A DNA stretch of 64,000 nt, from the NCBI RefSeq assembly GCF_003018255.1, contig NZ_CP027440.1; one strand, given 5' to 3'. A program made the position numbers and the translations under genes. Source of the DNA: Escherichia coli (lineage in GTDB: Bacteria; Pseudomonadota; Gammaproteobacteria; Enterobacterales; Enterobacteriaceae). Under the pieces are notes generated by a model that ran no database searches, was not told the origin of the DNA, and saw only the letters and a list, made by a program, of their open reading frames with translations. Shown one piece after another: positions 6,698-63,808 of this stretch (position 1 is the stretch's first letter; each line of letters opens with the position of its first letter).

Positions 6698-7105
6698 ATG
6701 GCGTTACGAAATAAAGCGTTCCATCAGTTACGACAGCTTTTTCAGCAGCATACAGCTCGCTGGCAGCACGAGTTACCTGACCTGACCAAACCACAGTACG
6801 CGGTGATGCGCGCCATTGCTGATAAGCCTGGTATCGAACAGGTGGCACTGATAGAAGCAGCAGTCAGCACCAAAGCAACGCTGGCAGAAATGTTGGCAAG
6901 AATGGAAAATCGTGGCTTAGTCAGACGTGAACATGACGCCGCTGACAAGCGGCGACGCTTTGTCTGGCTGACTGCCGAAGGAGAAAAGGTACTTGCTGCG
7001 GCGATCCCCATTGGTGACAGTGTGGATGAGGAATTTTTGGGGCGTTTGAGTGCAGAAGAGCAGGAGCTGTTTATGCAGTTGGTGCGCAAGATGATGAGCA
7101 AATAG
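6698..7105 (+). CDS. MarR/SlyA-family transcriptional regulator
   Basis: 135-aa ORF with winged-helix MarR pattern, divergent from the decarboxylase operon. Confidence 0.8.
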   Translation: MALRNKAFHQLRQLFQQHTARWQHELPDLTKPQYAVMRAIADKPGIEQVALIEAAVSTKATLAEMLARMENRGLVRREHDAADKRRRFVWLTAEGEKVLAAAIPIGDSVDEEFLGRLSAEEQELFMQLVRKMMSK

Positions 7106-7182
7106 GATGCTGATTGCCGGGTAGGACGCTGACGAGTCTTATCCAGGCGACAAAACACACCGACTTCCCAAACAAAAGAAAA

Positions 7183-7208
7183 AGGCCAGCCTCGCTTGAG
7201 ACTGGCCT
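7183..7208 (-). terminator. rpoS intrinsic terminator
   Basis: 11-bp stem (AGGCCAGCCTC/GAGACTGGCCT, one mismatch) followed on the minus strand by a U-rich tract, about 20 nt downstream of the rpoS stop. Confidence 0.65.
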
Positions 7209-7225
7209 TTCTGACAGATGCTTAC

Positions 7226-8218
7226 TTATTCGCGGAACAGCGCTTCGATATTCAGCCCCTGCGTTTGCAGGATTTCGCGCAAACGGCGCAGGCCTTCAAC
7301 CTGAATCTGGCGAACACGTTCACGGGTGAGGCCAATTTCACGACCTACATCTTCCAGTGTTGCCGCTTCGTACCCCAGCAAACCGAATCGACGTGCCAGT
7401 ACTTCACGCTGTTTGGCGTTCAGCTCGAACAGCCATTTGACGATGCTCTGCTTCATATCGTCATCTTGCGTGGTATCTTCCGGACCGTTCTCTTTTTCAT
7501 CGGCCAGGATGTCCAGCAACGCTTTTTCGGAATCACCACCCAGCGGGGTGTCTACCGAGGTAATGCGCTCGTTAAGACGAAGCATACGGCTGACGTCATC
7601 AACTGGCTTATCCAGTTGCTCTGCGATCTCTTCCGCACTTGGTTCGTGGTCCAGTTTATGGGACAACTCGCGTGCGGTTCGCAGGTAAACGTTCAGCTCC
7701 TTTACGATGTGAATAGGCAAACGAATAGTACGGGTTTGGTTCATAATCGCCCGTTCGATCGTCTGGCGAATCCACCAGGTTGCGTATGTTGAGAAGCGGA
7801 AACCACGTTCCGGGTCAAACTTCTCTACCGCGCGGATCAGCCCCAGGTTGCCCTCTTCGATCAGGTCCAGCAACGCCAGACCACGATTGCCATAACGGCG
7901 GGCAATTTTTACCACCAGACGCAAGTTACTCTCGATCATCCGGCGGCGGGAGGCAACATCTCCACGCAGTGCGCGACGCGCAAAATAAACTTCTTCTTCG
8001 GCCGTTAACAGTGGTGAATAACCAATCTCACCAAGGTAAAGCTGAGTCGCGTCCAGCACACGCTGTGTGGCTCCCTGCGATAACAGTTCCTCTTCGGCCA
8101 AATCGTTATCACTGGGTTCCTCTTCTACTAAGGCCTTTTCGTCAAAAACCTCAACTCCGTTCTCATCAAATTCCGCATCTTCATTTAAATCATGAACTTT
8201 CAGCGTATTCTGACTCAT
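7226..8218 (-). CDS. rpoS: RNA polymerase sigma factor sigma-S (sigma-38)
   Basis: ORF extends to 8254 but the start is placed at [17 protein letters not shown], giving 330 aa; sigma-70 family regions present; codon 33 is Glu, so no amber or truncating allele. Confidence 0.95.
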
Positions 8219-60771: not shown

Positions 60772-62124
60772 TTATTGCCCCGCGACAGGTTTCAGCTCAA
60801 TACGCTTGATATCGCCCACCAGCACCAGGTAGCTGAGTACCGCGATTAAGGCATGAACACCAACATAAATCAGCGCCCCATTAAAGGAGCCAGTCGTGCC
60901 AACGATATAACCAATTGCGATTGGCGTGACGATGCCAGAAATGTTACCAAACATGTTGAACAGGCCACCGGAAAGACCGCTGATCTCTTTTGGCGCAGTA
61001 TCAGCCATTACAGCCCAACCCAGCGCCCCGATCCCCTTACCGAAGAAGGCCAGCGCCATAAAGCCGATGATCATCCACTCAACGTTGACGTAGTTGCAGA
61101 ACACCATCACCATCGACAACAACATGCCCATCACGATCGGTGTTTTACGCGCAATGTTCAGTGAACCCGTGCGACGCATCAGCCAGTCGGAAATAATCCC
61201 ACCCAGCACACCGCCGATAAAACCGCAAACCGCCGGAACGGAAGCCACAAAGCCCGCTTTCAGAATCGACATCCCGCGCGCCTGCACCAGATAAACCGGG
61301 AACCAGGTAATGAAAAAGTAAGTCAGGGCGTTGATACAGTACTGACCGATATAAACGCCGATCATCATCCGTGACCCGAGCAGCTGTTTGATCTGCCCCC
61401 ACTTCACGCTGAACGGCACTTTAACTTTGGTGTTTTGCTGATCCATATTGATCAGCGCGCCACCCGCGGCGATGTACTCCAGCTCTTTCTGATTTACGCC
61501 CGGATGTTGATTTGGCTCGTGGATGACTTTCAACCAGATAAAGCTGATGACAATGCCCAGACCGCCCATAAAGAAGAAGACGTGTGACCAGCCCACTTCA
61601 TGAGTTAGCCAGCCCATAATCGGCGCGAAGATAACCGTTGCGAAGTATTGGGCGGAGTTAAAAATCGACACCGCCGTTCCCCTTTCCTGCGCCGGAAACC
61701 AGGCCGCAACAATGCGGCTGTTGCCAGGGAAAGATGGCGCTTCAGCAAGCCCGACCAGGAAGCGCAGTGTAAACAGGGCAACGATAATGCCGAATCCACT
61801 AAAGATATCGACGAAGCCTTGCAGCAAGGTAAACATCGACCAGATAAAGATCGACCAGAAGTAGACGCGTTTTGAACCAAAACGATCCAGCAACCAGCCA
61901 CCAGGGATCTGCCCGATAACATACGCCCATGAGAAGGCAGAGAACACATAGCCCATTCCCACGGGATCAAGGCCGATATCTTTGGCCATTTCCGAACCGG
62001 CAATAGAAAGCGTAGCGCGGTCGCCGTAGTTGAAGGATGTGACGATAAACAACATCACCACTATCCAGTAACGAGCATTCGTGCGTTTTTCCACACTGCT
62101 CGCAGCCTGACTTAAAGAACTCAT
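60772..62124 (-). CDS. gudP: glucarate/galactarate MFS transporter
   Basis: 450-aa hydrophobic ORF, first gene of the gudPXD operon. Confidence 0.95.
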
Positions 62125-62449
62125 TGTTGCACTCCTGAAAATTCGCGTTAGCCACGCTCACTCTGGACTGCGACATCGCCAGGAAATCAGAGGTGACGTA
62201 GGGTGTTTTTTGCCGTTTTTATAGGTCGTTCGCCGAATACGGCGCGTGTTTATATCTGGCAATAGCAGTATAAAAAGCGCGCCATAGCGGCTCACCGTGC
62301 AACAACACAACATTAATGCGTTCAATGAGGCCCGATTTTGGCATTAGCCCTGGACGGTGGAATCCACTTCACGGAAATGAAAACAAGAACAAGAAAGGAA
62401 GGGTTAAAACGAAGAAATAAAGAAGAGTATGAAATGGATCGCTTGACTC

Positions 62450-62506
62450 CAGGCAAACGCCAGTAAAAATCCGCGCTATGAAGCAGTTTTTACTGGCATT
62501 TGCCTG
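62450..62506. other. 20-nt imperfect inverted repeat in the gudP-yqcA intergenic region
   Basis: CAGGCAAACGCCAGTAAAAA ... TTTTTACTGGCATTTGCCTG separated by 17 nt; no U-tract on either side. Confidence 0.4.
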
Positions 62507-62558
62507 AAAAGATTCGATTCAGCACCGCTAAAACGGCATTTACCGCTCGCTGAACATA

Positions 62559-63008
62559 TCAGGACAACATCGTGCCCCAATGTTCGACCCACGGATTTGA
62601 TTCCGTTTCCGGTTCCGGGTTCTCACTGGCGTCAATCAACAGCATTTCGCCAACCCGCTGAGCGCTCTGTTCCTGCAACAAGGCATCGAACTGTTTGCCA
62701 CTATTGCAGAAATTCACATAACTACTGTCGCCGAGCGCAATCACGCCATAACGCAGATTCGGCTGGAAGCCCAGGGTATCTTTAATTCCCTGAAAGAGCG
62801 GCACAATGCTATCAGGAAGGTCGCCCTGCCCGGTCGTGGACGTAACCACCAGAACATACTTATCCTGATAGGGCAGCCAGTCGCTTAATTCAGGATCTTC
62901 AAATACCGTTGCTTTGTGGCCCTGCGCGGTCAGAATTGCTTCCGCTTCTTCCGCCACTAACAGCGAATTTCCGTACATAGTGCCGACAAAAATACCAATT
63001 TCCGCCAT
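62559..63008 (-). CDS. yqcA: flavodoxin
   Basis: 149-aa ORF with N-terminus [15 protein letters not shown]. Confidence 0.9.
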
Positions 63009-63025: not shown

Positions 63026-63808
63026 TTAGGAACTTATCTCTCCATCCTGACCCGATGGCGCACTGAACTCAACCCTTTCATTTTCAGGAAGCAGACCCCG
63101 CCAGCCAAATTGTGATAACGCCTGCATCCAGGTGTCGTCCAGGCCCGCGTGAATAGTCAGTGGCTCGCCAGTAAAAGGATGCGTCAATGACAACTGACTG
63201 GCATGCAGCATTAACCGCTGAAGGCCAAAATGTTCAGCACCGCTGCGATTCTGGCGTAAATCACCATGTTTGCTGTCGCCAATAATCGGGTGGCGCAAAT
63301 GGGCAAGATGGCGACGGAGCTGGTGCTTACGTCCGGTTTTCGGCTCCAGTTCCACCAGGCCGTAGCGCGTGGTCGGGTAACGTCCGGTCGCTACCAGCAT
63401 TTCTACGGTCGCCAGACCGCGATAATGCGTCACTGCTGGCTGCGGGCCTTTATCTTCGCGGGCAAATTTATCAGCGATTTTGTCCAGTTCTTCCACCAGT
63501 GGATAATCCAGCACCGCTTCTTCCATCAACCAGCCGCGCACAATCGCATGGTAACGTTTCTGGATTTGGTGCTGTTCAAACTGTTGTGCCAGCAGCCGTC
63601 CGGCCTCGCTGGATAATCCCATCAACAACACACCAGAAGTGGGTCGGTCCAGACGATGAGCAGTAAACACATGCTGGCCTATCAGGTCACGCACGGTTTG
63701 CATGACCACTACTTTCTCGTCGCGATCCAGCCAGCTGCGGTGAACCAGCCAGCCGGAGGGTTTATTTACCGCAACCAGCCATTCATCCTGATAGAGTATT
63801 TCCAGCAT
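63026..63808 (-). CDS. truC: tRNA pseudouridine(65) synthase TruC (RluA family)
   Basis: 260-aa ORF with RluA-family catalytic region HRLDRPTSG. Confidence 0.95.

Follow-up and report, generated by a model that had tools for sequence, protein, structure and literature searches.

In the ara, gal, deo and lac systems, distal operators act together with proximal ones at a fixed helical phase. The region between yqcA and gudP of Escherichia coli recalls this arrangement, in that a box is repeated, the distances between its copies are conserved or shifted by about 10 bp and the intervening sequence drifts, with the difference that the putative regulator here is an activator of the PucR/CdaR type. 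Nearer counterparts are the boxes in the garP/garD spacer and upstream of cdaR, in the CdaR (SdaR) regulon: they share with the element described here the core motif and an inward A-tract, and the garP pair has, in addition, the same inversion and a spacing of 42–44 bp. Unlike these, the distal pair at gudP is located about 200–240 bp upstream of the inferred start, in the 3' region of the upstream gene, and its two arms are far more alike (19/20 positions). The gud/gar pathway enables E. coli and Salmonella to utilise oxidised sugars in the inflamed gut; gudP, cdaR, garK and garL were recurrent targets of mutation in a mouse evolution study (bioRxiv 10.64898/2026.05.27.728231), and CdaR with its promoters has been employed as a glucarate/glycerate biosensor (PMC4551912, bioRxiv 10.1101/2024.05.15.594374). 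The literature that we searched contains no CdaR operator description and no footprint, ChIP or SELEX data for this protein.

A second class of described elements, stable stem-loops that lack a U-tail, are followed by more C than G and protect Rho-terminated transcripts (Dar and Sorek 2018, PMC6061677), resembles the same locus from the side of RNA. Here, too, a stem-loop is found after a stop codon, without a U-tail and followed by an excess of C over G, and read-through is sensitive to bicyclomycin; the locus differs in that the position of the dyad is fixed relative to a downstream promoter. In kind, the element is an ordinary operator dyad or 3' stem-loop, and the operator and RNA readings are compatible, not exclusive.

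The stretch of DNA that was analysed, 64 kb long and referred to as the window, carries gudP (60772–62124), yqcA (62559–63008) and truC (63026–63808) on the minus strand. MG1655 has the same layout; its gudP-yqcA spacer is 434 bp, and a single base, outside the repeat, differs from the window. The dyad is situated 52 nt 3' of the yqcA stop codon and consists, on the plus strand, of a left arm CAGGCAAACGCCAGTAAAAA (62450–62469) and a right arm TTTTTACTGGCATTTGCCTG (62487–62506) that are complementary at 19/20 positions across 17 nt; the two 20-nt arms and their spacing had been given exactly so in the initial annotation of this DNA. The repeat can be extended to arms of 35 nt at 77% complementarity, and the predicted fold has a stem of 26 bp, longer than the 20-nt arms. 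The absence of a U-tract, claimed in the same annotation, holds for the full stem but not for the arms, each of which has a five-T/A run: TTTTT is found at 62487–62491 on the plus strand and at 62465–62469 on the minus strand, in both cases immediately past a weak inner stem of 4 bp.

Only six local inverted repeats are present in the window, and the dyad is the longest of them, the other five being ordinary terminator-like hairpins and one REP element. When the 20-mer arm was searched with up to three mismatches, 0.01 matches were expected in the window and the two arms were the only ones obtained. Among complete E. coli genomes the dyad is present in 5,425 of 5,426, at one locus per genome; we take the second BLAST "place" in each genome to be the palindrome matching its own opposite strand. 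A multi-copy repeat, mobile element, REP or MITE was rejected on the basis of this single locus. With REP/BIME sequences the dyad has in common that it is palindromic and flanks a gene on its 3' side, but it is single-copy and the sequence of its arms is unrelated to REP. The arms are invariant in two of three sampled variant strains, the third (CRE10) having a single T-to-G change in the downstream arm. No annotation of the dyad exists in MG1655 or other RefSeq genomes, and no literature pairing gudP with yqcA, gudT with an sRNA, or gudP with Cra was found.

Read in the sense direction of yqcA and gudP, that is, on the minus strand, the upstream arm CAGGCAAATGCCAGTAAAAA (62487–62506) is composed of a regulon box, CAGGCAAATGCCAG (62493–62506), and an inward A-tract. 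It is followed by the 17-nt inter-arm spacer CTGCTTCATAGCGCGGA (62470–62486), for which folding predicts a weak 4-bp inner stem, CUGC/GCGG, and by the downstream arm TTTTTACTGGCGTTTGCCTG (62450–62469), which holds the second regulon box, inverted, with its core at 62450–62463. If transcribed from yqcA, the complete RNA stem-loop predicted by RNAfold would span 62447–62508 and comprise 26 base pairs. The inter-arm spacer is unrelated in sequence between genera and, in relatives, often contains a small hairpin followed by T5–7. Two further conserved boxes flank the dyad on the same strand. The one directly upstream, GCTGAATCGAATCTTT (62508–62523), reads ACTGAATCGWGTTAGC in relatives and is kept in Citrobacter, Salmonella, Silvania, Kosakonia, Phytobacter and Superficieibacter; it may resemble the Cra/FruR consensus. 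The one directly downstream, GTCAAGCGA-N7-TTCATAC (62427–62447), is conserved in 35 taxa, 8 of which are without the dyad. A CRP matrix built from 40 published Footprint-seq sites finds its best CRP-like match in most spacers at GTCAAGCGA-N7-TTCACAC, yet the scores there are 2.7–7.6 against a training minimum of 9.8, and a CRP site is not claimed.

The box itself, about 14 bp long, is palindromic, with GC-WWWW-GC as its core (TGKGCA-WW-TGCMCA) and an A-tract flanking it on the inner side. Each arm of the dyad is one copy, box and A-tract together accounting for the whole 20-nt arm, and the same box recurs at the proximal promoter of gudP and upstream of cdaR, with two further copies in the garP/garD region (the E. 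coli boxes in the garP/garD spacer and upstream of cdaR are TGTGCATATGCTC, TAGCATTTGCACAATG and AGGCATTTGCACAATG). A 14-mer weight matrix was trained only on the proximal gudP Box A (30 unique sites) and four garP boxes, with the arms left out. Applied to the E. coli spacer, this matrix ranks the two arms second and third, after Box A: the upstream arm scores 13.4 in the sense orientation (p = 2.4e-5 versus the rest of the window) and the downstream arm 11.7 on the opposite strand (p = 6.3e-5 versus the rest of the window), both scores being inside the training range of the matrix. Boxes on which it had not been trained are recovered as well, with scores of 14.3 upstream of cdaR and 14.0 for the second garP/garD box. 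The information content of the motif is low, at about one match of such strength per 7 kb of the window; the nine other window matches that score at least 12.7 are all inside coding sequences, as judged from the MG1655 annotation with colinearity to the window assumed.

The boxes elsewhere in the regulon are conserved in their own right. Those of the gar region are found in Salmonella, Klebsiella, Citrobacter and Kosakonia. Upstream of cdaR, E. coli, Salmonella, Klebsiella, Dickeya and Pantoea all keep the box TGTGCAWWTGCACAATG with a constant interval to a TATGCT -10 element; it adjoins a CRP site that has been independently reported (PMC12871828). The garP pair is inverted, with its A-tracts facing inward and a spacing of 42–44 bp in four genera, and inward A-tracts with 42–44 bp from centre to centre likewise characterize the distal and the proximal pairs of gudP. 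Located between divergent promoters, the garP pair, too, is predicted to form a long, imperfect hairpin (z = -4.0 in E. coli and -3.4 in Citrobacter), which indicates that the hairpin potential comes with the architecture of the box pair.

A scan for YqcA produced 80 loci from Enterobacteriaceae species, in 69 of which gudP is found within 1.5 kb after yqcA. The dyad is present in 27 taxa including the window (Escherichia, several Citrobacter, Salmonella, Silvania, Kosakonia, Phytobacter, Superficieibacter, Raoultella and relatives) and absent in Enterobacter, the Citrobacter freundii group and others, where spacers are about 300 bp and the proximal promoter alone has been kept; in taxa that lack gudPXD (E. 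albertii and others), the whole spacer is deleted along with these genes. Some relatives have true REP elements at the position of the dyad. The upstream box occupies the same position in 26 of the 27 taxa, whether capable of pairing or not. The downstream arm is a full box in Escherichia only; the other genera have a conserved half-site, GGCRTTTTCA. Compared with the Citrobacter form of this arm, GGCGTTTTCATAGG, that of Escherichia shows four or five clustered substitutions, all of which raise complementarity.

The arrangement of the gudP promoter region was derived from an alignment of 70 taxa, and in all 70 spacers the order of elements is CGTGAA-N9-CCA, Box A (GGGCTTATGCCnnAAAC), Box B' (TGTGTnnnTGCACGGTGAG) and TATACT. 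In the window, on the minus strand, the conserved CGTGAA-N9-CCA element occupies 62357–62373; the proximal Box A, AGGGCTAATGCCAA, conserved in these taxa and the best matrix match in the window, is at 62338–62351; Box B', TGTGTTGTTGCACGGTGAG (62291–62309), is a half-box 42 bp from Box A in which TGCACGGTGAG is nearly invariant over the 70 taxa; and the conserved putative -10 hexamer of gudP, TATACT, is at 62267–62272. Among the dyad-bearing taxa the hexamer reads TATACT in 26 of 27 and TACACT in the remaining one.

The distances between these elements are close to rigid. In the 27 taxa with the dyad, the upstream and downstream boxes are 41–43 bp apart, except in three (both Salmonella subspecies and one uncultured taxon), where a loss of 10 bp leaves 33 bp. 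The interval from the downstream box to the proximal Box A is 112–113 bp in all 27, that from Box A to TTGCAC is 47 bp, and that from TTGCAC to TATACT, start to start, measures 30 bp in 25 taxa and 31 bp in the two of Silvania; counted by us in the sequences, the spacing from TTGCAC to the -10 element is likewise 30 bp at garP and cdaR. Of 35 taxa, 33 have 65–66 nt between the GTCAAGCGA box and CGTGAA, and two have 55 nt. The corresponding stretch of the window, a pyrimidine-rich, G-poor tract of 65 nt (17 C, 3 G, 38 T; 62374–62438, minus strand), is a candidate Rho-loading tract, phasing spacer or both, and between genera the identity of its central 34 nt amounts to only 32%. Length and helical phase that are kept over drifting sequence, with indels in steps of about 10 bp, are predicted by a DNA–protein assembly and not by a 3' untranslated RNA. 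The two boxes lie some 200 and 240 bp before the inferred start of gudP, and the gudP control region is about 250 bp long.

As the conserved, ancestral property of the locus is the box pair with its geometry, the operator-pair reading was rated best. Judged from sequence, the dyad would be a distal pair of operators belonging to the sugar-diacid (gud/gar/cdaR) regulon, with CdaR as the most likely binding protein, and we give this interpretation slightly better than even chances. The sequences themselves show the identity of the motif, its orientation, spacing and conservation. The regulator is probably CdaR, given the co-occurrence of the box at gudP, garP/garD and cdaR only, a pattern from which we infer the binding, an effect on gudP being likewise inferred. 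According to this proposal, the two inverted boxes, 43 bp apart from centre to centre, would make up the distal pair of operators in the control region of gudPXD and would be held at helically phased, fixed distances from the proximal box pair. The activator CdaR would act on the distal and proximal pairs together, for example by cooperative binding or looping, and its joint occupancy would set the induction by glucarate and galactarate. Among the three possibilities offered by the initial annotation, a protein-binding dyad upstream of gudP, possibly for CdaR, is the one best supported, by the box shared among the gudP, garP/garD and cdaR promoters and by the distances fixed across genera.

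Several observations point against an operator pair. The dyad is unusually far from the promoter, and it is dispensable, since many genera (Enterobacter and the Citrobacter freundii group among them) keep gudP with the proximal boxes only. To these can be added the low information of the motif, the restriction of the full downstream box to Escherichia and some indications that pairing itself is under selection. In relatives, furthermore, the inter-box spacer often has its own small hairpin and T-run.

The potential of the dyad to fold is considerable, and it is largely a consequence of two palindromic boxes facing each other. The 62-nt segment 62447–62508 folds at -39.9 kcal/mol by RNAfold (z = -9.3), and the complementary strand of a 97-nt region at -38.3 kcal/mol (plus strand, z = -6.9) compared with -45.5 kcal/mol for the minus-strand RNA (z = -6.8, 0/200 shuffles as stable). 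The minus strand is the sense strand for both yqcA and gudP, and the sole mismatch of the arms becomes a G·U pair there; the sense RNA is 4–12 kcal/mol more stable than the antisense RNA in the window and in five other Escherichia loci (L002–L006). Across taxa, the long hairpin is strong in Escherichia only (-26 to -40 kcal/mol, z = -6 to -10); a few Citrobacter and Superficieibacter have one of moderate strength, and it is insignificant in Salmonella, Raoultella, Phytobacter, Kosakonia and Silvania. RNAalifold returned 0 consensus pairs for the alignment of 27 taxa. When the E. coli structure was imposed on this alignment, 69.2% of cells were paired versus 66.1% in shuffles, the high baseline of the latter arising because the boxes are palindromic; the covariation score was 0.182 versus 0.138 in shuffles, with 0/500 shuffles as high. 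The stem positions between box core and A-tract covary (AGT/ACT, TGT/ACA, CG/CG), and the stem mismatches within Escherichia are mostly G·U on the sense strand.

Published transcriptome data place a Rho termination region in the spacer, at 62142 on the minus strand (NC_000913.3 2922118; PMC7815308, Supplementary file 2), which is the sole entry of that study for 2,922,000–2,922,999 and has regional resolution. Upstream and downstream reads number 114 and 23 in untreated cells and 112 and 90 with bicyclomycin (Rho score 3.98, p = 9e-8); relative to the upstream level, read-through into gudP is 20% without and 80% with the inhibitor, an increase of about four-fold (PMC7815308). This sensitivity to bicyclomycin implies that termination between yqcA and gudP is largely Rho-dependent and that the stem is no efficient intrinsic terminator. 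The curated Term-seq tables list no 3' end in 2,922,000–2,922,999, but yqcA is without any mapped end in them, probably owing to coverage that is too low, so that they are uninformative here; the TERMITe supplements have no entry at the gudP-yqcA locus. The tract that follows the stem has a mean C/G ratio of 3.1 over 35 taxa. A role in Rho-dependent termination or RNase processing, which had also been suggested for the dyad, is partly supported, by the bicyclomycin-sensitive region in the spacer and by the C-rich, G-poor tract after the stem; no mapped transcript end falls at the stem.

These data bear on an alternative in which the dyad would function primarily as RNA, as the 3'-terminal stem-loop of the yqcC-truC-yqcA transcript. 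Rho would load on the C-rich tract and terminate transcription before or within the start of gudP, after which 3'-to-5' exonucleases would trim the RNA back to the 26-bp stem; the stem would stabilise the mRNA and insulate gudP from read-through. The sense-strand stem, 52 nt past the stop codon, is perfect when G·U is counted and accompanied by the stability quoted above (-45.5 kcal/mol, z = -6.8); the better folding of the sense strand, by 4–12 kcal/mol, recurs in six Escherichia loci including the window; and the 65 nt after the stem contain 17 C against 3 G. Beyond the dyad, no significant hairpin follows yqcA in E. coli (the first 55 nt give z = -1.8); Salmonella and Citrobacter have a stable one right at the yqcA stop, followed in Salmonella by a U-run. 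The Rho termination region in the spacer (PMC7815308) favours the same alternative, and the stem-loop fits the protective class described earlier (PMC6061677). Set against this, the structure is not conserved across taxa, unlike the boxes and their distances to the gudP promoter, and a role in RNA leaves unexplained the 112–113 bp to Box A, the 10-bp indels and the occurrence of the same dyad at garP. In Salmonella the dyad is downstream of a separate stem with its U-run and is, accordingly, not needed to end yqcA there. We rate RNA as the primary function, the main rival to the operator pair, as less likely than not.

The RNA structure need not be primary in order to exist. In Escherichia, which is without the terminator hairpin that relatives have beside the yqcA stop, the dyad has become almost perfectly symmetrical, and it is probably also the stable 3' stem-loop of yqcA transcripts that are Rho-terminated further downstream. 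A fully dual use, in which the DNA would serve as a CdaR operator pair and the yqcA RNA as a 26-bp stem-loop at a Rho-terminated 3' end, appears doubtful to us. If it did apply, a roadblock formed by the regulator and read-through from upstream would influence each other, coupling transcription of the yqcA operon to the induction of gudP, and Escherichia would have gained the RNA role by way of operator symmetry after losing the ancestral yqcA terminator hairpin.

Three other explanations are each unlikely. An intrinsic (Rho-independent) terminator of yqcA, possibly bidirectional, is suggested by the relatives, where the element has at its centre an A-tract, a short GC-containing hairpin and T5–T7, as in terminators of this kind, many of which work in both directions; this is seen in Citrobacter, Klebsiella/Raoultella, Superficieibacter and others, although Phytobacter, Kosakonia and Silvania are without the T-run. 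The E. coli element departs from such terminators, since its inner stem has 4 bp only, the long stem takes up its U5, and what comes after the full stem is GAGUCAAG / GAGUCAAGCG, with no U-tract. A terminator scan makes no call at the dyad, and termination here is Rho-dependent, inhibition of Rho raising read-through about four-fold to about 80% of the upstream level. We hold an intrinsic terminator to be very improbable.

The initial annotation had also considered a small RNA element. Such an RNA, or a regulatory RNA derived from the 3' UTR, would use the conserved ACUGAAUCG... segment as its seed and the hairpin as its terminator, and sequence is indeed conserved directly 5' of the hairpin, and more hairpins that covary are found in relatives in the 3' region of yqcA. 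Searches of Rfam 15 with permissive thresholds gave only chance-level matches (E >= 0.46) for the E. coli spacer and for Salmonella, and with gathering thresholds there was no match in the spacers of four relatives, CsrB being detected elsewhere in those loci; altogether, the E. coli, Salmonella, Citrobacter, Raoultella and Phytobacter loci show no Rfam match. There is no evident conserved promoter, no consensus structure across the taxa by RNAalifold, no listed 3' end and no mention in the literature that we searched. With neither an Rfam match nor a common structure to sustain it, the small-RNA suggestion is unsupported, and we consider it the least credible of the explanations given here.

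The symmetry found in Escherichia might, finally, be functionless, the product of a template switch (quasi-palindrome correction) that copied one arm onto the other and then persisted. The four or five clustered changes of the downstream arm relative to Citrobacter are what one such event would give. The symmetrical form has nevertheless been kept in the window, in L002–L006 and in 5,425 of 5,426 E. coli genomes, and the sequence that resulted is also a full match to the regulon box, which makes a neutral palindrome improbable in our estimation. Either selection for one of the two roles or a single template switch could account for the substitutions themselves, by which the downstream arm became at once a full box and perfectly complementary.

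With the operator pair as the preferred interpretation, the analysis gives a concrete box, a repeated pair architecture (inverted, 42–43 bp apart) and a rigid gudP control region, for a regulator whose operator we did not find described in the literature searched. All three could guide the design of biosensors. The locus also suggests caution in a more general sense, as palindromic operator sites that occur in pairs can give rise, as a side effect, to a striking "RNA hairpin" 3' of a gene.

Two promoter-like sequences were noted near the dyad. On the plus strand, a sigma-70 candidate, TTGACT-16-AAAAAT, has a conserved -35-like TTGAC and a -10 that is not conserved (AAAAAC in Citrobacter). A candidate second promoter of the CdaR type, TTGCCT-19-CATACT, would use the downstream arm, with a spacing that is 5 bp off that of the gudP, garP and cdaR promoters.

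The promoters of garP, cdaR and gudP share a common plan in E. coli MG1655 (locus L082, positions 6909-7282, and locus L083, positions 2310-2463), in which a regulon box is centred near -42, its TTGCAC starting 30 bp from the first base of a TATACT or TATGCT -10. In the garP and gudP promoters, a second box is found 42 bp further upstream of the one near -42. This arrangement provides a testable model of a putative CdaR-dependent promoter.

The two arms of the dyad (window 62450-62506), which we read as a putative distal pair of CdaR boxes, vary in spacing between lineages, with the distance being 33 bp in two Salmonella loci (L022, L024) and in locus L057, as opposed to 43 bp. Exactly 10 bp, one helical turn, are missing in these loci, a loss that leaves both distal boxes facing the same side of the helix. 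In E. coli SCPM-O-B-8794 (L002), the only position at which the arms differ is swapped relative to the window (AAAC/ATTT versus AAAT/GTTT), such that the arm mismatch becomes a G.U on the opposite strand. Because this position is swapped while the spacer between the arms keeps its orientation, the comparison suggests an exchange between the arms.

Conserved elements of the minus strand adjoin the dyad on both sides. The upstream one, GCTGAATCGAATCTTT (62508-62523), is kept as ACTGAATCGWGTTAGC in Citrobacter, Salmonella, Silvania, Kosakonia, Phytobacter and Superficieibacter, and appears to resemble the Cra/FruR consensus (GCTGAAWCGWTTCAGC); if it is a Cra/FruR site, catabolite control would be added to gudP. 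The downstream one, GTCAAGCGA-N7-TTCA(C/T)AC (62427-62447), is kept in 35 taxa, eight of them without the dyad. It is the top CRP-like match in most spacers, with a score well under those of proven CRP sites, and its reverse complement holds a conserved -35-like hexamer, TTGAC.

A pyrimidine-rich, G-poor tract of fixed length on the minus strand (62374-62438) recurs in the orthologous spacers, measuring 65–66 nt, or 55 nt in loci L037 and L040. Its centre retains nearly no sequence conservation, the feature that is kept being the pyrimidine-rich, G-poor composition of the sense strand, and the tract could serve at once as a phasing spacer and as a Rho-loading site. Two short ORFs, at 62338-62466 on the plus strand (42 aa) and 62322-62456 on the minus strand (44 aa), overlap the dyad and this tract; the underlying sequence is unconserved between genera.

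In relatives (L007, L020-L022, L024 and others), a stable hairpin, CCCTCCC...GGGAGGG, lies at the yqcA stop, accompanied in Salmonella by a U-run, and a second, small hairpin with a covarying stem and a conserved GCCAG loop also falls within the first ~70 nt after the stop. Both hairpins have been lost in Escherichia. A Rho termination region has been published at NC_000913.3 position 2922118, minus strand (window 62142; PMC7815308), 18 nt upstream of the gudP start codon, and this signal could equally reflect premature termination within a long gudP leader.

Several loci have been rearranged. In E. coli 2014C-4135 (L090), an IS66-family element inserted directly after GAGTCAAG, at the foot of the hairpin (window ~62441), stands between the dyad and the gudP promoter. 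In E. albertii (L016) and in loci L055, L058 and L071, a deletion has removed the gudPXD operon, and yqcA converges directly on barA; L058 retains a gudP promoter remnant. In two Citrobacter loci (L013, L019), the upstream box is retained, fused to gudD remnants. A contig labelled Chryseobacterium sp. 18061 (L059) carries an enterobacterial yqcA-gudP locus near-identical to that of 'Citrobacter sp. 18056', and the assembly is probably mislabelled or contaminated.
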